From the UHGV virus genome UHGV-0022456: a stretch of DNA of 38,055 nt; one strand, given 5' to 3'. Shown here piece by piece: positions 7,834 to 37,930 of this stretch (position 1 is the first letter of the stretch; every line of letters starts with the position of its first letter). Both the position numbers and the translations under genes were made by a program. The DNA comes from a virus. Under the pieces are notes generated by a model. The model did no database searches. It worked only from the letters and a program-made list of their open reading frames with translations, and was not told the DNA's origin.

Positions 7834-9438
7834 ATGGCAGAAGAACAAATAAACAGCCTCGTTAACCTGGCGGCTGAGCAATCACTTATCGGCGGCGTGC
7901 TGCTACTCGGATTCGATGCGGATTTTCGCGAGCGTACGGACTACGTTTTCCAGAATGTACGGGAATCTGATTTCTATTCTTCCGCACATAAAATCATCTG
8001 GCGTGAAATCTGTGCGATGACCGACAAGGCGAAGTCGGTGGATGTAATTACCCTGTTCGACATTATCGAAAGCAAGGGGATGGGTGAAAAGATAGGCGGG
8101 TTCGCATACCTGTCAGAGATAGCAAAAGGCACACCAAGCGCCGCAAACATCAACGCCTATGCTGATATTGTGGTCGAGCGCTCAAATGCGCGTGAGGTTC
8201 TGCGCCGGATGAATGCCGCCCGTGAAATCATCACCAAAGAGGATGGTCGGTCGCTGGCTATCCGCCTGGCAGAAGCGAGTGACATTACCGCAGGCATCGA
8301 CCAGATATCAGCGGGCCGTATGCTGTTTAATCCTGTCGATGTGATCACCTCGCAGCTGGAGACCATTGATGAAGACTATTCCCTTATCGAGAAGATTTTC
8401 AATGAATGTATTAAGCACAAAGATATTACTCTGCTTACTGGCGCTGGCGGTACGGGTAAATCCTGGCTCACCATCAAACTTGGCATTTCTGTCGCGCTCG
8501 GGCGTCCCGCACTTGGCGGGAAATACAATTTCCTCACTCCCGTGGAGCAGGGGGTAGTTGTCTTCCTGATTGGCGAGGATAGCGTTGATGACTACCGGCA
8601 TCGCCTGGATAAGCTGATTAAGGCGGCGGGCATGACCCGTGATGAAAAGGCGCAGATTCTTTCGTCAATCCTGTTCGTTCCTTTGCGTGATAAGGATATT
8701 CGCCTGATTAAGCGTGAGCGTGGGGGCGACCTGGAGCAGACCGGGGTTATCCGCAATCTTGCCGCATCACTGAAGGCGTGTAACTGCCGCCTCGCCATTC
8801 TGGACCCGATGAACAAATTTGCCAGCGGTGAGGAGAACAGTAACAACGAGGCAAACGTATTTATCAACGCTGTACGGCGCGTGGTTGATTTATCCGGCTC
8901 GGCGGTGCTGATGGTCCACCACTCATCAAAAAACGACCCAGGAGGCTCGCGCGGGGCTTCTGCGCTGGTGGATGGGGCGCGTTGTCATCTAGCACTGGCA
9001 ACCATGTCGCAGCTTAAAGGCGAGAAGGCAGAACAAGGGGATGATGATGTTATCCGCCTGACCATGCCGAAGCATAACAACTTTAAAGGATGGGATGGCC
9101 CGGTGTGGCTCAAGCGAAGTGACGCTGGCGACATGCTGACGATTGACCCACCAGAGATGATTGGTACAGGAGCTATCGCCAAGCGCTTTCATGTGGATAC
9201 AACGCGCGTTAAATCGCTCATTATTGAATGCATCCGCAGCAACTCCAGACCGACAAGCACCAGCGAGTTTATTAACGCCTTCATCGAAGGGCCAGGCAAA
9301 GAGCTGTGCCCTAACTATGGTAAGGCAAAGGACATCATCGGCGAAATGCTTAACGACGGCATTCTGGAAGAAGGCACGATGTTCAATCGCAAGGTGTTGC
9401 TGGTGGCTGAGCGCGAGAGTGATAATTTCACCTGGTGA
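7834..9438 (+). CDS. Replication protein with DnaB-like N-terminal domain and RecA/RepA-like P-loop ATPase
   Basis: 534 aa; N-terminal region resembles DnaB helicase N-domain; Walker A LLTGAGGTGKS. Confidence 0.65.
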   Translation: MAEEQINSLVNLAAEQSLIGGVLLLGFDADFRERTDYVFQNVRESDFYSSAHKIIWREICAMTDKAKSVDVITLFDIIESKGMGEKIGGFAYLSEIAKGTPSAANINAYADIVVERSNAREVLRRMNAAREIITKEDGRSLAIRLAEASDITAGIDQISAGRMLFNPVDVITSQLETIDEDYSLIEKIFNECIKHKDITLLTGAGGTGKSWLTIKLGISVALGRPALGGKYNFLTPVEQGVVVFLIGEDSVDDYRHRLDKLIKAAGMTRDEKAQILSSILFVPLRDKDIRLIKRERGGDLEQTGVIRNLAASLKACNCRLAILDPMNKFASGEENSNNEANVFINAVRRVVDLSGSAVLMVHHSSKNDPGGSRGASALVDGARCHLALATMSQLKGEKAEQGDDDVIRLTMPKHNNFKGWDGPVWLKRSDAGDMLTIDPPEMIGTGAIAKRFHVDTTRVKSLIIECIRSNSRPTSTSEFINAFIEGPGKELCPNYGKAKDIIGEMLNDGILEEGTMFNRKVLLVAERESDNFTW

Positions 9439-9444
9439 TTGTGG

Positions 9445-9472
9445 TTGACATTATTAAGTAAAGTGGTAAGGT
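9445..9472 (+). promoter_or_regulatory. Promoter-like element within GGTTGACAT motif upstream of helicase gene
   Basis: -35 TTGACA 9445-9450, 16-nt spacer, -10-like TAAGGT 9467-9472; GGGAG SD, ATG 9503. Confidence 0.35.
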
Positions 9473-9502
9473 TTGAACGGATTTTTAGCGGGAGCAAAAG
9501 AA

Positions 9503-11251
9503 ATGAAACAGCCACGCCCATATCAACAGGAAGCCATTAACTCCACTATCGAGGAGATTAAAAAATATGCCAAGCAGGGGAAATCAGCCCACCTGATTAT
9601 TGATGCAGGGCCTGGAGCGGGGAAGACATTGCTTATGGCTTTTTTGGCTAAGCATGTATTTGAGAGAGGTGGCCGTGTTGTGCAACTGGCTCGCCAGCCG
9701 ATACTGGCAAAGCAGAACTATGACGAGATGTACGAGTGCGGCATACCAGCCGCGCTTTACGCAGCAAAGTTCAACCGCCGTCAGGTTGCGCAGGTTACTG
9801 TTGCAACGGAGGGCACAATAGCCAATTCTCTGCATGACATGAATAAGCCGGTGGATCTTCTACTTTTGGATGAGTGTCACACTCTTAGTCCGGATGATGA
9901 AGATACGCAGATGAACACTATCATTCGACACCTGGATGATGTGACTACAAAAGCCGGCAGAAAGATGCACGTTGTCGGCCTCACGGGAAGCCCGTTCCGT
10001 GGGGTTACTCCATTAACCAGTTTCGATTTCTGGCACGATACGGTATTCAATATTGGCACTGATAAGCTGACGGAACTGGGTTACTTGTCAGTTCCTGTTT
10101 TCGGGTTCGCCGATGCCGATGATGATGCCCTGGACTTCTCCGGCGTAAACACTCGCAGCGGCTCATGGGAGTTCAGCGAGAAGGAACTCGACGAAATCGC
10201 CATGTCCGACGCAGGCAAGAAAAAACTTGTCCGCATTCTGATGCAGGTCATTGAAAAGACCAAAGACCGAAATCAGCGGATAGTCTTTGCATCTACCAAG
10301 CGACACGCCAGGGAGATTCGCCGCATCCTGATTGCCCTGGGCATCGACAAAAGCAAGATTGGCCTTGTCACTGACGATTCCAGCGAGGCAGAGAAAGACC
10401 GCGTTATCAAGCTGTCGAAGGAAGGCAAATTAGACTGGCTGATTAACGTGTCGGTGCTGACCACTGGCTTTAACTCGCCCCTGATTGACGTGGTGGTGTA
10501 CCTGCGCCCGATTGGTTCACTGGTGTTGCTGATTCAGTCAATGGGGCGAGGTGCTCGCCTGCTGGAAGACTGGATGAAAGAGGCTGGATTCCACAAAGAG
10601 AACTATCTGGTGCTGGACTATGCCGGGGTATTCGACCGGCTGGGGCATTTGCTGGATGACCCGACTACCGGCGAGGCGCTTGCTCAGCGTGATAAGTCTC
10701 GCGGAGAAGATAAACCATGCCCGCGCTGCCATGAGATGAACAGCAAGGCGGCTCGTCGCTGCCGGGCAAGGGATGAGTCTGAGCCTGATAAACGCTGTTC
10801 ATTTTTTTGGACGTCACAGATTTGCCCCGACTGCCAGACTGAAAATGACATTGCAGCTACTGAATGCCGTAATCCGTCATGCAGGCGAGAACTAAGGGAC
10901 TCAAATAAGGCTCTGCTGCATCATCCGTATTCAGATGAGGAAATGGTTGGCGTTAAGAAGATGGACGTGCTGAATACGAAAGGAGGTGCGCTAATGGTGC
11001 GCTTCACCCTGGAAGGCGACGAGCGACAACCGTACCTGATATTCCCGATGGGTGGCGATTTATCGAGGCGCATTCTGAAAAAGGAATTTGTCGATGTGTA
11101 CGTACAACCTGGCTGGCGCGGAAGGGTGGCGTCCATGAAAACAGCCGAGCAGATTGTGAAGATGGCGGGCGCATTCATGACGCCGAAGGCTATCGCATAC
11201 CGCATCAACGGCAATAACAAATATGTAGTTGGTCGCAGGAAATTCTCATGA
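9503..11251 (+). CDS. SF2 DEAH-box DNA helicase with C-terminal zinc-ribbon region
   Basis: Track ORF 9473-11251 trimmed to ATG 9503; Walker A GPGAGKT; box II LLLLDECH; C-terminal CPRCH...CRARD and CPDCQ...CRNPSC. Confidence 0.75.
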   Translation: MKQPRPYQQEAINSTIEEIKKYAKQGKSAHLIIDAGPGAGKTLLMAFLAKHVFERGGRVVQLARQPILAKQNYDEMYECGIPAALYAAKFNRRQVAQVTVATEGTIANSLHDMNKPVDLLLLDECHTLSPDDEDTQMNTIIRHLDDVTTKAGRKMHVVGLTGSPFRGVTPLTSFDFWHDTVFNIGTDKLTELGYLSVPVFGFADADDDALDFSGVNTRSGSWEFSEKELDEIAMSDAGKKKLVRILMQVIEKTKDRNQRIVFASTKRHAREIRRILIALGIDKSKIGLVTDDSSEAEKDRVIKLSKEGKLDWLINVSVLTTGFNSPLIDVVVYLRPIGSLVLLIQSMGRGARLLEDWMKEAGFHKENYLVLDYAGVFDRLGHLLDDPTTGEALAQRDKSRGEDKPCPRCHEMNSKAARRCRARDESEPDKRCSFFWTSQICPDCQTENDIAATECRNPSCRRELRDSNKALLHHPYSDEEMVGVKKMDVLNTKGGALMVRFTLEGDERQPYLIFPMGGDLSRRILKKEFVDVYVQPGWRGRVASMKTAEQIVKMAGAFMTPKAIAYRINGNNKYVVGRRKFS

Positions 11252-11736
11252 TTACTCAAGAAGAGCTAAAGAAGGCATTGAATTACGATCCATTAACTGG
11301 AATTTTCACCAGGAATATGAGGGCATCAAATCAAGTTCCTGGACAAGTTGTTGGCTCTAAAGATAGCGGTGGTTACTTGGTTGCAATGATTAACGGGAAA
11401 AGGTACTCACTACACAGGATGGCCTGGCTTTATTTTTATGGAAGGATACCAGTTGGAGATATAGACCACATAAACGGCGTTAGGGACGATAACCGAATTG
11501 TAAACCTCAGGGAATGCAGCCGTAGCAAGAATTGCATGAACAAAAAGATAAATAAAAACAACATGTCAGGAGTTAAAGGGGTTGGCTGGCATAAGCAAAG
11601 CGGCAAGTGGAGAGCAAGGATAATGATAGACGGAGAGTCTATTCATATCGGTGAATTTAAATCAATAGGTGATGCCGAGTCAGCAATATCAGAAGCAAGA
11701 GATAAAATACATAAGCAATTCGCGAGGCATTCATGA
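11248..11736 (+). CDS. HNH endonuclease with AP2-like DNA-binding domain (paralog 1)
   Basis: HRMAWLYFYG...DHINGVRDDNRIVNLR HNH core followed by SGVKGVGWHKQSGKWRARI AP2-like segment; AT-rich; ATGA overlap with helicase stop. Confidence 0.7.
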   Translation: MITQEELKKALNYDPLTGIFTRNMRASNQVPGQVVGSKDSGGYLVAMINGKRYSLHRMAWLYFYGRIPVGDIDHINGVRDDNRIVNLRECSRSKNCMNKKINKNNMSGVKGVGWHKQSGKWRARIMIDGESIHIGEFKSIGDAESAISEARDKIHKQFARHS

Positions 11737-12451: not shown

Positions 12452-12958
12452 ATGTTTCACCCAACAGGTCTAAGTCACGATGAAATATGTAGTCTTTTTG
12501 ACTACGACCCAGAGACAGGAGAAATAAAGAGAAAGTTCAAGGTTAGAGGCTCAAGATCTGATGGTAAAACAGGGGGAATGGGCGGACACAAGTACATAAG
12601 GATAGGATTCAGAGGTTTTAGGATTTACGCGCACAGGCTTGCATGGTTCATCTATCACGGTCATCTGGACCGGGACATTGAAATAGACCACCTGAATGGA
12701 AATGGATATGACAACAGAATTTGCAACTTAAGGCTTGCCACTAGCCAGCAAAATTCATTCAACATAAAAAAACATGCAGATAATCAATCTGGTTATAAGT
12801 GGGTTTACTTTGACAAAAGAAGGCAGAAGTTTTCTTCAAGGGTTTCAGTTAACGGAAGGTCAATGTTTCTTGGTTACTACATAAACCCAGAGGATGCACA
12901 TATGGCGGCGCTAAAGGTAGCCATGGCAGTGCACAAAGAATTTTTCAGGAGCAAATAG
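12452..12958 (+). CDS. HNH endonuclease with AP2-like domain (paralog 2)
   Basis: HRLAWFIYHG...DHLNGNGYDNRICNLR then SGYKWVYFDKRRQKFSSRV; AT-rich; GAGG SD. Confidence 0.7.
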   Translation: MFHPTGLSHDEICSLFDYDPETGEIKRKFKVRGSRSDGKTGGMGGHKYIRIGFRGFRIYAHRLAWFIYHGHLDRDIEIDHLNGNGYDNRICNLRLATSQQNSFNIKKHADNQSGYKWVYFDKRRQKFSSRVSVNGRSMFLGYYINPEDAHMAALKVAMAVHKEFFRSK

Positions 12959-12959
12959 C

Positions 12960-13901
12960 ATGAACTACTTACCAGCACTAAAACCAGCACATGATTTGAT
13001 TCTTTCACAAGAAAGTTCATTCATGTCGATACTTTCTGATGAAAAAATTAATTTTCATAAGGAAATGAATTTTGCAATGCAGCAGCTTTCAGGAAATGAC
13101 TTCTTGCTTAAAGTGGCAATGCAAAACCCACAATCACTAAAGGATGCAATATTAAACCTTGCAGCATTCGGTCTAAGTCTTAATCCTGCACTTAAGCATG
13201 CTTATCTGGTTCCAAGAAAAGGTAAGATATGCCTTGATGTTGGTTATCTTGGCATGGAATACATAGCCATAGACTCAGGAAGCGTGCTATGGGTTCAAAG
13301 CAAGATTGTTTATTCAAATGATACATATGAGTCAATGGGGATAGACAAGGCTCCAGAGCACAGATATAGCGCGTTCGGAAGTAGAGGCTCAATTGTAGGG
13401 GCTTATTGCGTTGCAAAGGTTCACGATGGCTCATTCCTTACCGAAGAGATGAATATAGAGGAAATATATAAAATAAGGTCTCGTTCTGAATCGTTCTCAA
13501 AGGGAAGCATGTCTCCTTGGAAAACTGACGAAGGCGAGATGATAAAGAAGACAGTTATAAAGAGAGCAAGCAAAGGGTGGCCGAAGTGCGACCGACTGCA
13601 AAGTGTTATTAGTTTCGCCAATGAGAATGAGGGCATTGACTTCCAGCGTGAGCGAGCACCAGTGCGCGAGAAGGCTATCAGCCCGGCAACGGAAGAGCAG
13701 GTTAAGACAATCCGTGAAGGCCTGGAGTTTATCAGCCGACCGGAAGAGGCCTTCCTGAAATACTTCTCTGGCAGCATAGCCAAGCGCGTTATTGAGTCCA
13801 TTGAGGAGCTGACCGAGGAGGAGGCAATCAAGGCTATCAGCACCATCCAGAGCATCATGGATAAGCAGGCAGAGAAGCAATCAAATAGAGAGGTATTCTG
13901 A
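12960..13901 (+). CDS. recT: RecT-family single-strand annealing protein
   Basis: 313 aa; pairs with downstream YqaJ-type exonuclease; 5' two-thirds AT-rich, 3' third GC-normal. Confidence 0.65.
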   Translation: MNYLPALKPAHDLILSQESSFMSILSDEKINFHKEMNFAMQQLSGNDFLLKVAMQNPQSLKDAILNLAAFGLSLNPALKHAYLVPRKGKICLDVGYLGMEYIAIDSGSVLWVQSKIVYSNDTYESMGIDKAPEHRYSAFGSRGSIVGAYCVAKVHDGSFLTEEMNIEEIYKIRSRSESFSKGSMSPWKTDEGEMIKKTVIKRASKGWPKCDRLQSVISFANENEGIDFQRERAPVREKAISPATEEQVKTIREGLEFISRPEEAFLKYFSGSIAKRVIESIEELTEEEAIKAISTIQSIMDKQAEKQSNREVF

Positions 13902-14434
13902 TGGGAAGGAGACCTTCTGACATAGATGATGACATGGTTTCTGAGCTTAGAGACAGATTAAATTATGACCCTAATACAGGAATTCTTACATGGAAGAAAG
14001 TCAGAAAAAGAAAACTGATAGGTTCCGAGGCTGGGTTCATGATGAATTCTGGATACATGGCCCTCAAGATTGGGACAAGAAGGATTCAATGCCATAGGGT
14101 TGCCTATGCAATAGTTAACGGAGCAATAGGTGATGGGGTAGAAATCGACCACATTAATGGTGTTAAGCATGATAATAGGATTTTAAATCTTCGTGCATGC
14201 TCTGCATCTCAAAACAGAATGAACGTAGCACTGATGAAAAATAACACATCAGGTGTTAAAGGCGTAAGTTTTTGCAGATCGAGCGGTAAATACAGGGCAG
14301 AAATAATGGTTAATTATAAATCTTACTATCTAGGAGAGTTTTCTAGCATAGATGAGGCATCAAAAGCTGTCTCATCAGTTAGAGCCAATATTCATAAAGA
14401 ATACTCTAATCATGGGGAATTCAAAAAATGCTGA
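13901..14434 (+). CDS. HNH endonuclease with AP2-like domain (paralog 3)
   Basis: HRVAYAIVNG...DHINGVKHDNRILNLR then SGVKGVSFCRSSGKYRAEI; AT-rich; overlaps recT stop by 1 nt and exonuclease start by 7 nt. Confidence 0.7.
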   Translation: MGRRPSDIDDDMVSELRDRLNYDPNTGILTWKKVRKRKLIGSEAGFMMNSGYMALKIGTRRIQCHRVAYAIVNGAIGDGVEIDHINGVKHDNRILNLRACSASQNRMNVALMKNNTSGVKGVSFCRSSGKYRAEIMVNYKSYYLGEFSSIDEASKAVSSVRANIHKEYSNHGEFKKC

Positions 14435-15615: not shown

Positions 15616-16266
15616 TTAATATCCAATAGCCAGAAAAAAAACATCAGAAAGATTAGAGTCATGACTTGTGCCGGATGTCAGGCACGTCACAGCGTCAAAC
15701 CCAGTATTTGTTACGCTCTCACAAGACGTAACAATCTGTGCAAATGTCAACTTAGTGGCAAATACTCCCCAAACACCAGTCGGAAATGGTGTCGGATAGG
15801 TGACAGGGATTGTTGTCGGTATGCCAATTAATGTTGAGTTAGATAGCCTACGCCGAAAGACCTGGGTAATTAAACCATTTGGAAGTTTAGCTAACAGATT
15901 GTCAGTGCCTTTCCCTGTAAGCTGGAAATAACTCATATCAGGTATTTCAAGCGATTGAGTATTACCGACATCACGGCCAGATGCTGTCCCGAGATCTCCC
16001 AAACCAAGATTCTCGAGAGCCTTAGCGATTGCTGCCGGACCATCAGCTTTAATGTCTCCGAATGGGTCTGTTCTTTGTAGCTTATTTGAATACAGCCATT
16101 GAGATTTCAGGTCTGATAAATTTTGCAGATAACTGAAGTCATTTTTAGTTGGGGGGGTTGCCCCAACAAATTCCCAACCCTTTGCATAGTTAACATCACC
16201 GATTGGCGTCAATCCACCAGTGGCGGTAGAACCGAAAATCTTGCTGAAATCTGCTGGCAGAGCCAT
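15616..16266 (-). CDS. Tail fibre protein (short)
   Basis: 216 aa; Gly/Thr/Ser-rich; position between baseplate genes and tfa. Confidence 0.5.
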   Translation of the reverse strand: MALPADFSKIFGSTATGGLTPIGDVNYAKGWEFVGATPPTKNDFSYLQNLSDLKSQWLYSNKLQRTDPFGDIKADGPAAIAKALENLGLGDLGTASGRDVGNTQSLEIPDMSYFQLTGKGTDNLLAKLPNGLITQVFRRRLSNSTLIGIPTTIPVTYPTPFPTGVWGVFATKLTFAQIVTSCESVTNTGFDAVTCLTSGTSHDSNLSDVFFLAIGY

Positions 16267-24046: not shown

Positions 24047-24214
24047 TTATCGCGCAGCAATCATTGCTTGCCAGATGAACACGACGGCATCCTGCAATTG
24101 CTCGTCATCTAATCCATCCTCCAATCCCGGAACGTCCTCCAGTAACTGCTTAATGCCAGCTTGAATTTGTTCATCTGTTGGCTGGAGTGCCACTTCAAAT
24201 TTAGGTAATGACAT
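24047..24214 (-). CDS. Small acidic protein (55 aa), not in ORF track
   Basis: ATG at 24214 with GAGAGGAAA SD; MSLPKFEVALQPTDEQIQAGIKQLLEDVPGLEDGLDDEQLQDAVVFIWQAMIAAR. Confidence 0.4.
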   Translation of the reverse strand: MSLPKFEVALQPTDEQIQAGIKQLLEDVPGLEDGLDDEQLQDAVVFIWQAMIAAR

Positions 24215-24407
24215 TTCAATTTCCTCTCTGTGGTGTTATTGGTGGGGTGGCGTGCTTCGTCGGTAGCCTCGGTTCAGTAACCGCACTAGCGTTCTCCGTT
24301 TCCGGTAGTGTGTGCGTTCTGGCCTCACGGTTGGGAATCCTGACACTACGATCAAGCCCCTGCGTTGCTCCTCTCCTGCTGCATCCTGCCGCCTCCCTAT
24401 GTGTTGA

Positions 24408-24435
24408 ACTATACACTCTATTTATATTGTGTCAA
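24408..24435 (-). promoter_or_regulatory. Strong sigma70-like promoter driving the moron cassette
   Basis: Minus strand -35 TTGACA (plus 24430-24435) inside GGTTGACAC, 16-nt spacer, -10 TATAGT (plus 24408-24413); leader of about 186 nt to ATG 24214. Confidence 0.55.
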
Positions 24436-32041: not shown

Positions 32042-33359
32042 CGAGTAAGTTAAGACCTAACAGGTCATCATTCGAATTGCCATCATCTTCCGGCAACTCT
32101 TCCAGAGAGAACAGGCCTGAGTCGTTAGCCAGGTTGCGCACCTCGTTAGGCGTGAGCGCCGCAGATTGCTCAAGCGTTGAAATTGCCGTCGCAACCGATG
32201 CCATCGACGTTGCTTTCTTGTCTGGTGACATAGCACTAAGCTCTGCCCACTTCCAGTCAAAGTCCAGTCCAGTCTGCATCTTCACGTTATCAATACATGA
32301 CTGCACCAGCGCAGACGGATCCCCTTCCTGAATCGCGGCAATCTTGTCGTAGTAAACCGACAGGATTTCTTCCTGGCTGGCGTTGAGGCCTGCCGGAGAT
32401 TTGCCGAACAGCATCATCTCAGAAAGGCCGGTCGCGCCAGCTACCGCAGTGGCAAAGCGGTCAACGAAGTCGGGGATGCCCTGGAGTGAGCGGTTAACGA
32501 ACTCGAACTTCTCTTCTTTGTCGACAACCGCCGCCCGGTAGATGGACTTGCCCTGATTGAAGGCGTTTGCACGGTTCATGACCGCCTGAGATGCCGTCAT
32601 GCCCATTGATTGTGCCGCTGTCAGGTTTGGCACGGAAAGGATGCCAACCCCTGACTCTTTCAGCAGGAATGATGCATCCTGCAGTGTCTCGTTATATGCG
32701 GCAATTGCCGACCATGCCATCGCTACATATGAGCCACCCCATCCCTGCAATTCAATCTGGGTATCGTATGGAACCGGGCAGCCATAGAAAGGCGCAATGC
32801 GGTCACGGTGATACGTCACGCCGTTGCGAGCCACATAATTAAGCGCGCGCCCATAATGCGGGGATTCAGGGTCAAGGTCGATTTCATCAACGCTTAATGA
32901 CCAGCGGTCTAGCGGTACCAGGTCGATGATGGCCGCTGTTTCTGATGGAGGTGATTCTGGCGGGCGAGAATCGTCATAAACCTTCAGCACACCAGCGCCA
33001 CCGAACAGGCGGGACCAGGCGATACCCTTTCGCACGGATGCACGCAGTCCCATCTCGTCCAGCATGGACTCGATGCGCTTTTTGTCCTCGCCATCCACCC
33101 CTGTTATTTCGATAAACTTACGGGTGGCGTCCTCAGCGGGAAGGTCACAGATTTTACGCGCCAGCCAGTCAGACAGATAGATATTAGTCAGCACCTGCTG
33201 ATTGTTATGCAGCAAATGCGAGAATGCAGGTGACAGAACCTGCCCGAGGCTCTTATCGATGCCCGGCATACCCTGCCCGGAGATGGGGTTAGCCCACGCA
33301 TCCACGCGGTACGACAGACTGCCGTCATTGTGCAGCTTTAGGTGAGGCTTCTTGGCCAT
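31971..33359 (-). CDS. Portal protein
   Basis: 462 aa with acidic C-terminal tail (EELPEDDGNSNDD); immediately upstream of MuF-like gene; overlaps MuF-like ORF by about 70 nt. Confidence 0.7.
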   Translation of the reverse strand: MAKKPHLKLHNDGSLSYRVDAWANPISGQGMPGIDKSLGQVLSPAFSHLLHNNQQVLTNIYLSDWLARKICDLPAEDATRKFIEITGVDGEDKKRIESMLDEMGLRASVRKGIAWSRLFGGAGVLKVYDDSRPPESPPSETAAIIDLVPLDRWSLSVDEIDLDPESPHYGRALNYVARNGVTYHRDRIAPFYGCPVPYDTQIELQGWGGSYVAMAWSAIAAYNETLQDASFLLKESGVGILSVPNLTAAQSMGMTASQAVMNRANAFNQGKSIYRAAVVDKEEKFEFVNRSLQGIPDFVDRFATAVAGATGLSEMMLFGKSPAGLNASQEEILSVYYDKIAAIQEGDPSALVQSCIDNVKMQTGLDFDWKWAELSAMSPDKKATSMASVATAISTLEQSAALTPNEVRNLANDSGLFSLEELPEDDGNSNDDLLGLNLLGGENGTNGISETTGSTEAGQAEA

Positions 33360-33410
33360 TATGAATCCCTCATGAAGTTAAAGTCAGTATATCACGGAGG
33401 ATTGGATAAG

Positions 33411-33431
33411 AAAAAACCCGCCGGAGCGGGT
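33411..33431 (-). terminator. Rho-independent terminator after tRNA-like gene
   Basis: Minus strand ACCCGC-TCCG-GCGGG followed by TTTTTT. Confidence 0.6.
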
Positions 33432-33440
33432 CTTATGATT

Positions 33441-33515
33441 TGGCGGGAAGGCATGGACTCGAACCATGATAAAAGAGTTAACAGCTCTCCGTAATAACCT
33501 TTATACGACCTACCC
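33441..33515 (-). tRNA. tRNA-Asn (anticodon GTT) candidate, phage-encoded
   Basis: Hand-folded cloverleaf: acceptor GGGTAGG/CCTTCCC (one U-U mismatch), D-loop with GG, anticodon stem GAGAG/CTCTT, loop CTGTTAA, T-arm CATGG-TTCGAGT-CCATG, discriminator G, encoded CCA. Confidence 0.55.
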
Positions 33516-33545
33516 GTTGCTGGTTTAAGCATTGCCAGCATGCTT

Positions 33546-33626
33546 CTTAATATCCAGCCCCGTAATCCCTGCATACCCCTACACATGATTGCGGAAAATT
33601 GTTTTCAATTAATGCTGGATATTAAG
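33546..33626. repeat. Perfect 13-bp inverted repeat flanking a 55-bp spacer
   Basis: CTTAATATCCAGC (33546-33558) and GCTGGATATTAAG (33614-33626); noncoding stretch upstream of tRNA. Confidence 0.5.
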
Positions 33627-33735
33627 TGTTGTGTGCCGGTCTTTCCCGTCTGTCATTTACACCACAACGGGGTCAGCGTTGCTTTGAGGCTATCCAATGC
33701 TAGCAAGGTTAGTATTGCCAAATCGTGGAGCTATG

Positions 33736-34011
33736 TCAATCTATTGGTTTCCCCAGTGCGTGCATATCCCCGGATGATTTCGATAATATATCAGCCAGCC
33801 TTCCGAGCTGCCCAGCTATGTCAGATAGATTTTCATTTATCTGCTGTATTTCCTCTTTCAGTGTTGAGCCGCCACCGTAAGGAGTCATGCCAAGCTGCAT
33901 GGCTATAGCCTCAAGAAACTTCGGGGTGTCGTCGCTATCGGTAACACCAAGCCCGCGAGAAATCACGGACACCAATGAATGCAGGTCTTCATTTGTTGTT
34001 TTGTTTTTCAT
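33736..34011 (-). CDS. Hypothetical protein (91 aa)
   Basis: ORF downstream of Arc-like ORF; acidic, Gly-rich centre. Confidence 0.45.
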   Translation of the reverse strand: MKNKTTNEDLHSLVSVISRGLGVTDSDDTPKFLEAIAMQLGMTPYGGGSTLKEEIQQINENLSDIAGQLGRLADILSKSSGDMHALGKPID

Positions 34012-34511: not shown

Positions 34512-34736
34512 TTTACTGTCTGGCATTTTGTCGCCGTTACACTTTTTCTTCCATGTTTCGTTGTGGGCCAGAATCTGGCGCAGCGTGCCATCGGTCATGT
34601 GGTCGATTTCACCGGCATCCATCCAGATTGGGCGAACCCAGTAGCAAGACGTGTCAATTACCTGGACGGGTCCATTCGTCGCGCAGCTTGTCGCGGACAG
34701 AGCCAGGATTGCTGCGCATAACTTCATCTTTAACAT
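34506..34736 (-). CDS. o-spanin (Rz1-like lipoprotein) overlapping i-spanin gene
   Basis: Internal start in track ORF 34506-34868; MLKMKLCAAILALSATSCATNGP signal/lipobox-like with Cys; different frame overlapping 3' end of Rz-like gene. Confidence 0.45.
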   Translation of the reverse strand: MLKMKLCAAILALSATSCATNGPVQVIDTSCYWVRPIWMDAGEIDHMTDGTLRQILAHNETWKKKCNGDKMPDSKG

Positions 34737-34917
34737 CGTTTGCCACCTTAACGGATTCTGTGCGGGCTTTCTCTTGCTCCACGGATTGCTGCGCCTGCTG
34801 GATATCGGATTTAGCTTTCTGCTCGGACTTGCCGCGAGACTTGCCACCGAACCACAGCCCGACAGCACCGATGATTAGCGCGGTGATTGCGCCGATGATT
34901 GTGCTGAGGGTTATCAT
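34654..34917 (-). CDS. i-spanin (Rz-like)
   Basis: 87 aa; N-terminal TM helix ITLSTIIGAITALIIGAVGLWF then charged coiled coil; follows holin. Confidence 0.55.
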   Translation of the reverse strand: MITLSTIIGAITALIIGAVGLWFGGKSRGKSEQKAKSDIQQAQQSVEQEKARTESVKVANDVKDEVMRSNPGSVRDKLRDEWTRPGN

Positions 34918-35243: not shown

Positions 35244-35792
35244 TCATAGGGAAATGCGATTGGCAATCCAGCCATAAGCGAAAGCCTCGTTCTTCTGGTT
35301 GGCCTCTGCCAGCTCGATATACCGCGCACCCTGAAGGCAGTTCAGCGCCTTGAGCATCACGGTTTCACCTTGCTTGCCACGCGCACCAAGATAGCTTTTC
35401 AGTGCTGATGCAGTAGCCGGCCCGACCTTTCCATCGACAGCAATATCAGCGTATGCCTTGCCCTGGTTGTTAAAGGCGTTCAGGCATCGCTGAAGGAACT
35501 TTCCCGCCACAGATGGCCCCATGTTCACGCCGGTATCAATCACCTCGGCAGCGATGGATTCAGACAGCGGTAGCAGCAGGTCAAACTTCGGTTTCGAAAC
35601 GTATTGAGTGTAGTAGATGTTTTCGGCAAGTGAGATAGGCAGGTCTTTCATTGCCCCGGTGTAGCCATTGGAAACAGCTACCGCTTTGGTAATGCCGTAC
35701 ATCGTTTCGCCGCCGGAGTCATTTGGGTTATTTGAGTAACCACCTTCGGCTTTGATGATGTCATCAATAATTGACTTTACAGCCGGGGTCAT
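35244..35792 (-). CDS. Endolysin, GH108-type N-acetylmuramidase with C-terminal peptidoglycan-binding region
   Basis: Track ORF 35244-35870 (GTG) trimmed to ATG 35792 with GAGG SD; hallmark EGGYSNNPNDSGGETMYGIT. Confidence 0.75.
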   Translation of the reverse strand: MTPAVKSIIDDIIKAEGGYSNNPNDSGGETMYGITKAVAVSNGYTGAMKDLPISLAENIYYTQYVSKPKFDLLLPLSESIAAEVIDTGVNMGPSVAGKFLQRCLNAFNNQGKAYADIAVDGKVGPATASALKSYLGARGKQGETVMLKALNCLQGARYIELAEANQKNEAFAYGWIANRISL

Positions 35793-35894
35793 AAAAACCT
35801 CATTATTAAGTTTTGGCTCGATTCGCAACCAGTGGGCCGCCGAGGCATACTTGCCTGTCGGCGTTGCCACGCTGCCACCCTTGGAAGCGTAGCC

Positions 35895-36524: not shown

Positions 36525-37245
36525 AGAATTGCCGAAGCGTGGTGGATGGCCTGATGGTGCGCTAAATGCCACGCAAGATAAAGATGGCCAGGTGTGCTTT
36601 TCTGCCGGTGCAGTCCCTGAATTTGGCTACGTTGCCTGGGAGGGCGGCGACTGGCTCGGGAATGAGTTTTACGCCACTAGGGCAAGCGACTACGCATATG
36701 CCATCATCACCTGCGAACAATACGAATCAGCACTGGCAGCCAGCAAAGCCGTTGTTGGCCATGACGGCTGGATTCAATGGCATGGCGGTGAGTGCCCTGT
36801 TGATAGTGACGCAATTGTTGAGGTCAAATTCCGAAATCAGAACCGGGACAAAATCAATAGTGACAGAGCCGGAGATTTTTACTGGCCGCATGATGGCCTT
36901 GGATATGACATCATCGCCTACCGGCTGCAACAGCAGACGAAATCAGAACAGGCTTGCGATGACGCTGCGGAAGCTGATGACGAAGCCGACCTGAATGAGT
37001 GCATTGGTCATGATTTTGACGTAGTTAACCATCCATCTCACTACACACAAGGCAGTATAGAGTGTATCGACGCTATTAAAGCTGCGCTAGGTGAAGAGCA
37101 ATATGAGGGGTACTTACGCGGCGCTTGCATTAAGTACCTGTGGCGATATAAAATGAAATCTGGAGTTGAGTCATTGAAAAAATCAGAGTGGTATCTGAAA
37201 AGGTTAATCGAACTTAATGAAGAGATTGAATCCAGAAACAAATAG
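36499..37245 (+). CDS. DUF3310-like phage protein
   Basis: 248 aa; C-terminal HYTQGSIECIDAIKAALGEEQYEGYLRGACIKYLWRYKMKSGVESLKKSEWYLKRLIE matches the remembered DUF3310 signature; GAGGAAG SD. Confidence 0.5.
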   Translation: MKLIDLLVKELPKRGGWPDGALNATQDKDGQVCFSAGAVPEFGYVAWEGGDWLGNEFYATRASDYAYAIITCEQYESALAASKAVVGHDGWIQWHGGECPVDSDAIVEVKFRNQNRDKINSDRAGDFYWPHDGLGYDIIAYRLQQQTKSEQACDDAAEADDEADLNECIGHDFDVVNHPSHYTQGSIECIDAIKAALGEEQYEGYLRGACIKYLWRYKMKSGVESLKKSEWYLKRLIELNEEIESRNK

Positions 37246-37930
37246 ACCTTACGTTTTGGGCGAGTACAACCCGGACACGGGGTTGTACTTCAGAGCATAT
37301 GTAAAAACCATCGTCAAATCTGATGGGTACTTTAAAGAAGCGTGGTTATCCCATGATGCTCTCGAAAGATTCATAGCTCGACAAAGGTTATCTGCCAGAA
37401 AATGTCAAATCAGGCGTAATGAGGAGAATCGTAAATGGATTAACGACTATAAAATATCAAAAGGGTGTAGCGTTTGTGGATATAAATCTCACGCTGCTGC
37501 ATTAGATTTTGACCATTTGGAAAGATCAGATAAAAAATTCACGATTGGGAGACGTTTGGGTGGATTGTCGAAAGAGAGGCTGCTTGCTGAAATTGAGAAA
37601 TGCAGAATACTCTGCGCCAATTGTCACAGGGTGAAAACTTTCGAGAATAATGAGCACGGAAGAATAAGAAATGATAATTTACTGGAGAGTGCAATAATCG
37701 AGAGTCGAATAGAAAAATCAAGACAAATAAATAAGTTCAGAAGTAAATTCTACACGACGAAAACGAAAAGTAGACTGAAAAATGTATACCTTTCAAAATC
37801 GGGATTGTACTTCGTGAGAAAACAAATCGGACGGGTAAGAACGTGCGCAGGGTGCTTTGACAACATATTCGATGCGGCATGCTGTCTGATTGGGGAGCAT
37901 CAACTGAAACCGTTATGCGATGGTGAGTGA
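37217..37930 (+). CDS. HNH endonuclease (distinct family from the HNH-AP2 paralogs)
   Basis: CSVCGYKSHAAALDFDHLERSD...CRILCANCHRVKTFEN; AT-rich; 5' end overlaps DUF3310-like gene by 29 nt. Confidence 0.65.
   Translation: MKRLNPETNRPYVLGEYNPDTGLYFRAYVKTIVKSDGYFKEAWLSHDALERFIARQRLSARKCQIRRNEENRKWINDYKISKGCSVCGYKSHAAALDFDHLERSDKKFTIGRRLGGLSKERLLAEIEKCRILCANCHRVKTFENNEHGRIRNDNLLESAIIESRIEKSRQINKFRSKFYTTKTKSRLKNVYLSKSGLYFVRKQIGRVRTCAGCFDNIFDAACCLIGEHQLKPLCDGE

Follow-up and report, generated by a model that had tools for sequence, protein, structure and literature searches.

The transfer RNA (tRNA) genes of bacteriophages were long taken as a remedy for codon bias, and recent work shows that some of them are spare parts against tRNA-cutting immunity. 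In lambdoid phages, tRNA genes occupy the "moron" slot of the late leader downstream of Q, pR' and tR', as do ileZ-argN-argO of the Stx phage 933W. The species 1 and 2 RNAs of T4 are stable RNAs located with the phage tRNA genes, and T5 (NC_005859) is annotated with RNAI, RNAIII, RNA1, RNA2 and RNA3, of unassigned function, among its tRNA genes. AriB of the PARIS system cleaves E. coli tRNA-Asn(GUU) at U36AAUC|C41, between nucleotides 40 and 41 and beside U36AAU39, and this tRNA is a secondary but biologically relevant target (PMC12409363). Substitution of U39 abolishes the cleavage of tRNA-Lys, substitution of position 41 inhibits it, and PARIS is neutralised by the T5 tRNA-Lys, -Thr and -Asn together (PMC12409363). 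The present study concerns the virus genome UHGV-0022456 (38,055 nucleotides, referred to as the window), which carries a tRNA-Asn gene with anticodon GTT on its minus strand at 33441–33515. We consider it on balance probable that this gene is an intact tRNA-Asn(GUU), carried as the payload of a swappable slot in a transcription unit of its own, and that it has counter-defence value. The initial annotation, made from the sequence alone, had placed the tRNA at the same coordinates; the structured leader, the swapping of the cassette content and the substitutions at the AriB site were outside its coverage.

ARAGORN calls only one tRNA in the whole window, the tRNA-Asn (gtt) with exactly these ends. 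The Rfam family RF00005 matches 33444–33515(-) end to end, spanning model positions 1–71 in Infernal, with 54.4 bits against a gathering score of 29 and E = 3.7e-9 for the window. The gene comprises 75 nt including an encoded CCA, and both programs place the anticodon, tRNA positions 34–36, at 33480–33482. The cloverleaf had earlier been folded by hand, and each of its details was found in the sequence: the anticodon loop CTGTTAA, the T-arm CATGG-TTCGAGT-CCATG (GGTTCGAGTCC), the GG of the D-loop, the discriminator G, the CCA, a U4·U69 mismatch in the acceptor stem, and a weak D-stem of three Watson-Crick pairs plus U13·U22. The identity elements of the E. coli asparaginyl-tRNA synthetase (AsnRS) are G34, U35, U36 and the discriminator G73, reportedly described by Li, Pelka and Schulman in 1993. 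All four are found in the window tRNA.

The window tRNA is about 60% identical to the host asnT, with little in common beyond the T-loop. With the tRNA-Asn of jumbo phages of Erwinia and Serratia its identity is 93%, and two related loci, L015 and L165, carry an identical copy. A tRNA-Asn of 85% identity occurs in 369 of 5,426 complete E. coli genomes; in the prophage of E. coli 165 and in lambdoid IMG/VR contigs this copy lies directly after pR'/tR', alone or with tRNA-Thr(UGU). A scan of IMG/VR with the D-arm of the lineage gave 43 contigs with 21 distinct sequences, 20 of which were analysed; the search pattern fixed the D-arm, and its invariance is therefore built in. Across the 20 variants, 93.1% of the cells in the cloverleaf are paired, compared with 27–54% when the partners are slid. 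Changes on both sides are seen in 12 of the 21 pairs, and none of 500 shuffles matches the observed covariation score. The sole non-pairs are U4·U69, present in 9 of the 20 variants, and U13·U22, present in all 20; the other variants have U·G, C-G or U-A at positions 4 and 69. The two mismatches are thus lineage traits of the phage-borne tRNA-Asn. Because they recur in independent variants with many compensatory changes elsewhere, the gene is of a functional type and not a decaying one. The initial annotation had left both possibilities standing; the first of them held and the second was dropped.

The published AriB cleavage site falls in a part of the molecule where the window tRNA departs from that of the host. 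Aligned with asnT of MG1655, tRNA positions 39–41 (33475–33477, minus strand) are C39 U40 C41 in the window and U39 C40 C41 in the host. The window tRNA accordingly reads U36-A-A-C39-U40|C41 (33480–33475) against U36-A-A-U39-C40|C41, being cognate to an AriB-cleaved tRNA and differing from it at two bases next to the cut site. The T5 tRNA-Asn, which belongs to another lineage, reads UAAGUU, with G39 and U40. In the lambdoid cassette of Asn and Thr, tRNA-Asn reads UAACCU and tRNA-Thr(UGU) reads UAAGCG, so that both are changed at position 39 and the latter is also changed at position 41 (UAAGC|G). Both AriB and P2 Old have Thr(UGU) as a prime target, and a single Thr(UGU) gene of phage origin is enough to rescue a phage from Old. 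As the bases around the cut site suggest, the window tRNA is probably a spare that resists the nuclease, kept as accessory cargo.

The following course of events can be proposed. Host RNA polymerase would start at the promoter at 33739–33711, transcribe a leader of about 190 nt and then the tRNA, and stop at 33434–33405. The last ~110 nt of the leader would fold into a conserved multi-helix element. RNase P would cut at tRNA +1, exonucleases would trim the 9-nt trailer to the encoded CCA, and the host AsnRS would charge the phage tRNA. The charged tRNA would then keep the decoding of AAC and AAU going once a defence of the PARIS/AriB type depletes the host tRNA-Asn. We infer the transcription, processing, charging and nuclease resistance from the sequence and from the published site.

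Several points weigh against a counter-defence role. The seven-base anticodon loop is the same as that of the host, and a nuclease cutting in the loop would not be evaded. tRNA-Asn is a secondary target in the sole PARIS system studied, and the bypass there needs tRNA-Lys and tRNA-Thr (PMC12409363); the window, with its one tRNA, encodes neither. The replacement of A31-U39 by G31-C39 could be neutral stem variation, and half of the lineage, in large environmental tRNA arrays, retains U39. In addition, a modest genome-wide excess of Asn codons exists, which is compatible with plain supply. The existence of a functional tRNA gene in its own unit is accordingly held more firmly than the statement as a whole, while a counter-defence benefit, taken by itself, seems nearly but not quite as probable as its absence.

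The lysis genes and the portal gene flank a small separate noncoding unit, and the tRNA is its payload. A sigma-70-type promoter, TTGACA-17-AATACT, was located at 33711–33739 (minus strand) by a consensus scan with 10 of 12 matches, and is predicted to drive the unit. Its hexamers, TTGACA and (G/A)ATACT, are kept in the relatives and the spacer is diverged: the promoter is TTGACA-17-AATACT in L015 and TTGACA-17-GATACT in Escherichia phage BUCT618 (38,270 bp), to which the window has about 90% DNA identity over 79% aligned of 13100–38055. The ~190-nt leader from the promoter to the tRNA folds at -60.4 kcal/mol, with z = -3.66 relative to shuffles. Its end is a structured element of ~110 nt, designated P1 (33519–33626, minus strand), which stops 3 nt before tRNA +1. 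Behind the tRNA lies an intrinsic terminator (33405–33434, minus strand) with a 9-bp stem at 33434–33413, a TCCG loop and T6. It folds at -14.7 kcal/mol (z = -5.2) and is common to the relatives regardless of the cargo. A terminator following the tRNA had been noted before, at 33411–33431.

The stretch from the end of P1 (…AAACCAGCA) to the terminator is variable and constitutes a slot, the content of which was surveyed in 38 loci. Nothing is present in 15 of them. An Ile2-like tRNA with anticodon CAT stands alone in 11 loci, and the same scaffold carries AAT in three and TAT in two. tRNA-Ser(GCT) with tRNA-Arg(TCT) is found in 3/38, tRNA(CAT) with tRNA-Arg(TCT) in 2/38, and tRNA-Asn(GTT) in 2/38, namely the window and L015. 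The slots behind the P1 leader in siphoviruses hold nothing, tRNA(CAT/AAT), Ser(GCT) with Arg(TCT), or tRNA(CAT) with Arg(TCT).

The close relatives of the window, defined by a portal of 95–97% identity or by the ~90% DNA identity of BUCT618, give the clearest view of the exchange. With the same flanks and an identical terminator, tRNA-Asn is present in the window and L165, and tRNA-Ile(TAT) in BUCT618 and L164. In L166, whose portal is 95% identical, both P1 and the tRNA are replaced by an open reading frame (ORF) of 84 aa (2675–2929) with a PF11195 Tad2-like Thoeris anti-defence domain (E = 4e-26). As the flanks are the same and the content varies, the slot is a hot spot for accessory genes that is able to hold known anti-defence cargo. 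The case is unusually clean: a lone tRNA in a 38-kb virulent phage, with sister phages that hold another tRNA or an anti-Thoeris gene in its place.

Two further observations concern the tRNAs of the slot. The anticodon switches within one Ile2-like scaffold, being CAT in most loci, AAT in three (CAT and AAT together: L008, L011–L014, L018, L020–L025, L028, L029, L032 and L037) and TAT in two (L001, 3944–4020, and L009). Such a switch would free the reading of AUA from lysidine modification, or retarget the tRNA to AUU/AUC. Separately, the tRNAs seen in the slot and in its lambdoid counterpart all read ANN codons (Asn AAY, Ile AUA/AUH, Ser AGY, Arg AGA, Thr ACA). These tRNAs are of the U36-A37 class, the class that holds the AriB motif U36AAU.

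P1 has a 13-bp outer helix formed by 33626–33614 with 33558–33546, enclosing inner hairpins, and a 3' hairpin formed by GCTGG (33539–33535) and CCAGC (33523–33519). The window copy folds at -37.7 kcal/mol, with z = -4.4. P1 is present in 140 GenBank phage records at 77–92% identity, and also in about 30 IMG/VR contigs. Most of the carriers are Salmonella or Escherichia siphoviruses of 45–48 kb (Skatevirus, Segzyvirus, Deseoctovirus and BASEL Bas77–81), which have no further DNA in common with the window. RNAalifold on 25 distinct sequences gives four helices with 30 pairs, in which 98.9% of the cells are paired. Double changes occur in three pairs, U-A to C-G in 9 sequences, G-C to U-A, and A-U to G-C, and none of 500 shuffles reaches the observed covariation score. 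The structure is assigned to the tRNA-sense strand because nearly all one-sided changes give G·U there and would give A·C on the opposite strand. An insertion/deletion of 15 nt in P1 makes a small hairpin of its own. A scan found no promoter within P1, and the same 15-nt insertion/deletion removes the sole TTGAAA candidate.

The element does not correspond to any family in Rfam 15, which has nothing in 33517–33750 even at E <= 10. tRNAs were the only matches to pass in the scans of the window at the gathering threshold, of 33350–33750 at E <= 10 and of 18 related loci, lambda among them. The sub-threshold matches (isrK, SpF41 and tmRNA-like domains) stem from the terminator or from hairpins resembling a T-arm and were rejected. 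A self-cleaving ribozyme (HDV-like/theta or hammerhead) or a Y-RNA was likewise set aside for the leader; Rfam gives no signal for them, and theta ribozymes would be expected on the other side of the tRNA. In the 5,426 complete E. coli genomes P1 and the leader had no match, the tRNA being the only part of the query that was found. In 185,579 species genomes the search for P1 gave two matches, a phage-like scaffold of Pantoea and a 20-mer due to chance. A covariance-model search of ~1.3 Mb of other phage loci, among them lambda and the T5 tRNA region, returned only a partial match to helix 4, in the contig L130. P1 is kept in all listed genome-reduced mutants of the Salmonella phage seszw (MZ375295–MZ375354), down to about 37 kb, and the paper on this genome reduction makes no mention of the P1 region. 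The retention may reflect a need for P1, or only for the genes on either side of it.

The 5' part of the leader (33627–33705, minus strand) leads to phage lambda. In the relatives, P1 is preceded by long helices, one or several per locus, built as CACAACAGGTAAGAGCATTG-[variable insert]-CAGTGCTCTTTCCGTTGTG, and the full module is found in L015, L009, BUCT618 and L166. The inserts are of 40–110 nt and highly variable, many with T-arm-like GGTTCGAnTCC hairpins, and the helix exists in compensatory versions (AATGGCA/TGCCATT, AAGAATA/TATTCTT and AAGGGCA/TGCCCTT). Its 3' strand was found in over 120 contigs of IMG/VR (L045–L162), and lambdoid prophages are numerous among them. The same module is present in lambda just after tR', at NC_001416 ~44,789–44,863 (L163, 990–1065), and this place carries tRNAs in other lambdoid phages. 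No Rfam family covers the stem module in the related loci and lambda that were scanned. The window does not have the lambda-type late-leader module, a ~19-bp helix with insert (CACAACAGGTAAGAGCA...TGCTCTTTCCGTTGTG), as its AGGTAAGAGCA arms are not present. It keeps a shortened form, GTTGTG plus CACACAAC, with GTTGTG at 33668–33663 and CACACAACAC at 33635–33626. This part of the leader resembles what is left of a CACAAC/GTTGTG stem module of the lambda type after shortening, and a deletion between CACAAC repeats would have removed the remainder. For both P1 and the lambda-type stem modules, no described function was found in the literature searched.

The contig with the partial match to helix 4, L130, is a 70-kb phage contig. 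It has an array of six tRNAs at 9203–9861, including one with anticodon CTA, an amber suppressor that ARAGORN labels Pyl. At 10348–10530, ~500 nt downstream of the array, a hairpin GCTGGCTCTGCTCAAACCAGCA homologous to helix 4 of P1 is fused directly to a CACAAC stem module.

Other accounts of the tRNA were weighed against that of an intact gene carried as accessory cargo. It might be a tRNA pseudogene in decay, or what remains of an attachment site derived from a tRNA, as the U·U mismatch in the acceptor stem and the 3-bp D-stem could suggest. The single-sequence fold of the tRNA is also no better than shuffles (z = -0.55), by a measure that is not informative for tRNAs. Both mismatches, however, are conserved among variants that otherwise covary, the Rfam score is far over the threshold, and the gene has its own promoter and terminator. 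There is no integrase-like match among the ~40 ORFs scanned (which include all ORFs of at least 130 aa not nested in a larger gene), nor any extended identity to the host asnT beyond the T-loop region, in agreement with the earlier view that an attP is unlikely. The pseudogene reading is largely refuted already and is highly improbable; we take the gene, on this comparison of sequences, to be an intact tRNA of functional type, neither decaying nor an attP. A simpler role for an intact tRNA would be to raise the decoding of Asn in the Asn-rich proteins of the phage, such as the products of the AT-rich HNH and methyltransferase genes, with no link to defence. E. coli uses about 39 Asn codons, about 4–5 AUA and about 2–3 AGA per 1000, and has four asn tRNA genes. 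Counted over 48 phage genes, the window has 49.5 Asn codons (AAC + AAT), 11.4 AUA and 6.4 AGA per 1000; the values for BUCT618 are 46.9, 8.0 and 5.5. Asn codons reach 59–79 per 1000 in three of the four HNH genes and in the methyltransferase gene MTase1, and 54 in HNH2, so that the enrichment put forward in the initial annotation does exist in the HNH genes and in one methyltransferase. The other tRNAs of the slot read the genuinely rare AUA and AGA, both 2–3 times enriched in the window. Genome-wide, however, the rationale is weakly supported: the Asn excess over E. coli is much smaller than that of AUA or AGA, and with four host asn genes the case from codon use is weaker for Asn than for the other two. 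The cargo does not track codon use either, since BUCT618, with similar Asn and fewer AUA codons, holds tRNA-Ile(TAT) and the window holds tRNA-Asn. A third relative has a gene for an anti-defence protein in the slot. Codon or amino-acid supply is therefore possible but not probable, and accessory cargo in a swap slot is better supported.

Two further proposals shift the weight from the tRNA to the RNA around it. In one, the structured leader RNA would be the functional product and the tRNA mainly a handle for processing or stabilisation. The RNase P cut at the 5' end of the tRNA would then set the 3' end of a small leader RNA, similar to the small RNAs freed from tRNA precursors, such as 3'ETS-leuZ. 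P1 is more conserved than its surroundings, covariation and strand-specific G·U pairs are seen in it, and in the 15 loci without any tRNA it ends at a terminator. T5 also has its several stable or tRNA-like RNAs of unassigned function among the tRNA genes. On the other hand, selection on structure is clear in the tRNA lineage itself, this lineage exists without P1 in lambdoid and jumbo phages, L166 has neither P1 nor tRNA, and no target or function was found for P1; this proposal is quite unlikely. The other would make the locus a portable promoter-to-terminator "RNA cassette operon", forming an RNA-based island for host takeover or anti-defence, with the tRNA as one interchangeable payload. 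Its parts would be common to the lambda late leader and to unrelated virulent sipho- and myoviruses, in the order CACAAC/GTTGTG helices with inserts, then P1, then tRNAs or an anti-defence gene. The non-tRNA modules would serve to divert tRNA-targeting nucleases, as decoys, or to sponge up small RNAs of the host, for example GcvB by way of CACAACA. In RNAduplex the leader paired with the MG1655 GcvB no better than shuffles did, in a test that is uninformative for long RNAs, and an 8-nt match ACACAACA:UGUUGUGU was the sole pairing noted between them. A cassette operon of this kind is unlikely.

The window is an essentially complete genome of a small, virulent, E. coli-type myovirus. Among its gene products are the terminase, portal, protease, major head protein, sheath, tube, baseplate, tape measure and tail fibre, and it also codes for a RecT/exonuclease pair, a helicase-primase, two DNA methyltransferases and four HNH endonucleases. 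The initial annotation placed the tRNA between a regulatory module and the portal gene. The portal gene is indeed the next gene downstream, and the upstream neighbours proved to be a lysis cassette on the same strand, comprising an endolysin (35244–35870, minus strand), a membrane protein, an Rz-like spanin (34654–34917, minus strand) and small ORFs. The four HNH genes lie at 11248–11736, 12452–12958, 13901–14434 and 37217–37930. Three of them are PHROG 99 paralogues interleaved with the RecT/exonuclease genes; the HNH genes are AT-rich, with 26–56 AUA and 12–63 AGA per 1000 codons.

BUCT618, on which no paper was found in the literature, has a coding sequence annotated "integrase" (L215, 12033–12809). 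This sequence is without a Pfam domain and is in a tail-fibre position, between a tail-fibre assembly gene and a baseplate gene; its counterpart in the window (15616–16266) matches tail-fibre families, and the annotation is probably wrong. Elsewhere in the window, a promoter-like TTGACA-16-TATAGT is found at 24435–24408 (minus strand), past the tail-tube terminator. It is followed by a purine-rich untranslated stretch of ~190 nt (24231–24416, minus strand) ahead of a small ORF at 24214–24047. Many unrelated phages (Jilinvirus PT1, Bas97, Arya, swan01-like phages and others) have the stretch at 84–97% identity, mostly without annotation. It has no Rfam match, its overlapping ORFs have no PHROG family, and it gives no folding signal (z = +0.08). 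It appears to be another horizontally shared noncoding module.

The analysis thus exposes two uncatalogued noncoding elements beside the tRNA, the P1 leader of the 140 GenBank phage records and the lambda-type stem modules of more than 120 contigs and lambda itself. Novelty, if any, would lie in these RNA modules around the tRNA.

The comparison with the tRNA-Asn of T5 and PARIS (2024, PMC11464382) is a close one in that a virulent coliphage-type genome again carries a tRNA cognate to an AriB target. The site reads UAAGU|U in T5, UAACU|C in the window and UAAUC|C in the host, with positions 39 and 40 substituted in both phages. The window tRNA nevertheless belongs to a different tRNA-Asn lineage, with another D-arm and acceptor stem. 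It is also a single tRNA in a 38-kb genome, without Lys or Thr partners, compared with the array of about 25 in T5.

The tRNAs of the lambdoid late leader share the tRNA-Asn lineage of the window at 85% identity, with the same U4·U69 and compensatory stem changes. In both settings the tRNA is followed by its own terminator, and the relatives of the window carry the CACAAC...GTTGTG module upstream. In the window, by contrast, a sigma-70 promoter belongs to the unit itself, which lies in a virulent myovirus with lysis genes on one side and the portal gene on the other. The tRNA of this unit is preceded by P1, which is not found in the lambdoid loci.

P1 resembles the stable RNAs of T5 as a structured RNA adjoining phage tRNA genes and co-oriented with them. 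The covariance-model search revealed no resemblance to the T5 region in either sequence or structure, and P1 is a distinct, uncatalogued motif. The prophage AgvB anti-small RNAs, located 3' of pR', mimic the CACAACA target motif of GcvB (Tree et al. 2014, PMC4104026). AgvB-type RNAs, of 51–60 nt, are convergent with pR' and come with promoters of their own. The leader and its lambda-type relatives likewise hold conserved CACAAC(A) motifs in a similar lambdoid region, whereas here the CACAAC motif is for the most part taken up by pairing with GTTGTG, within a long helix.

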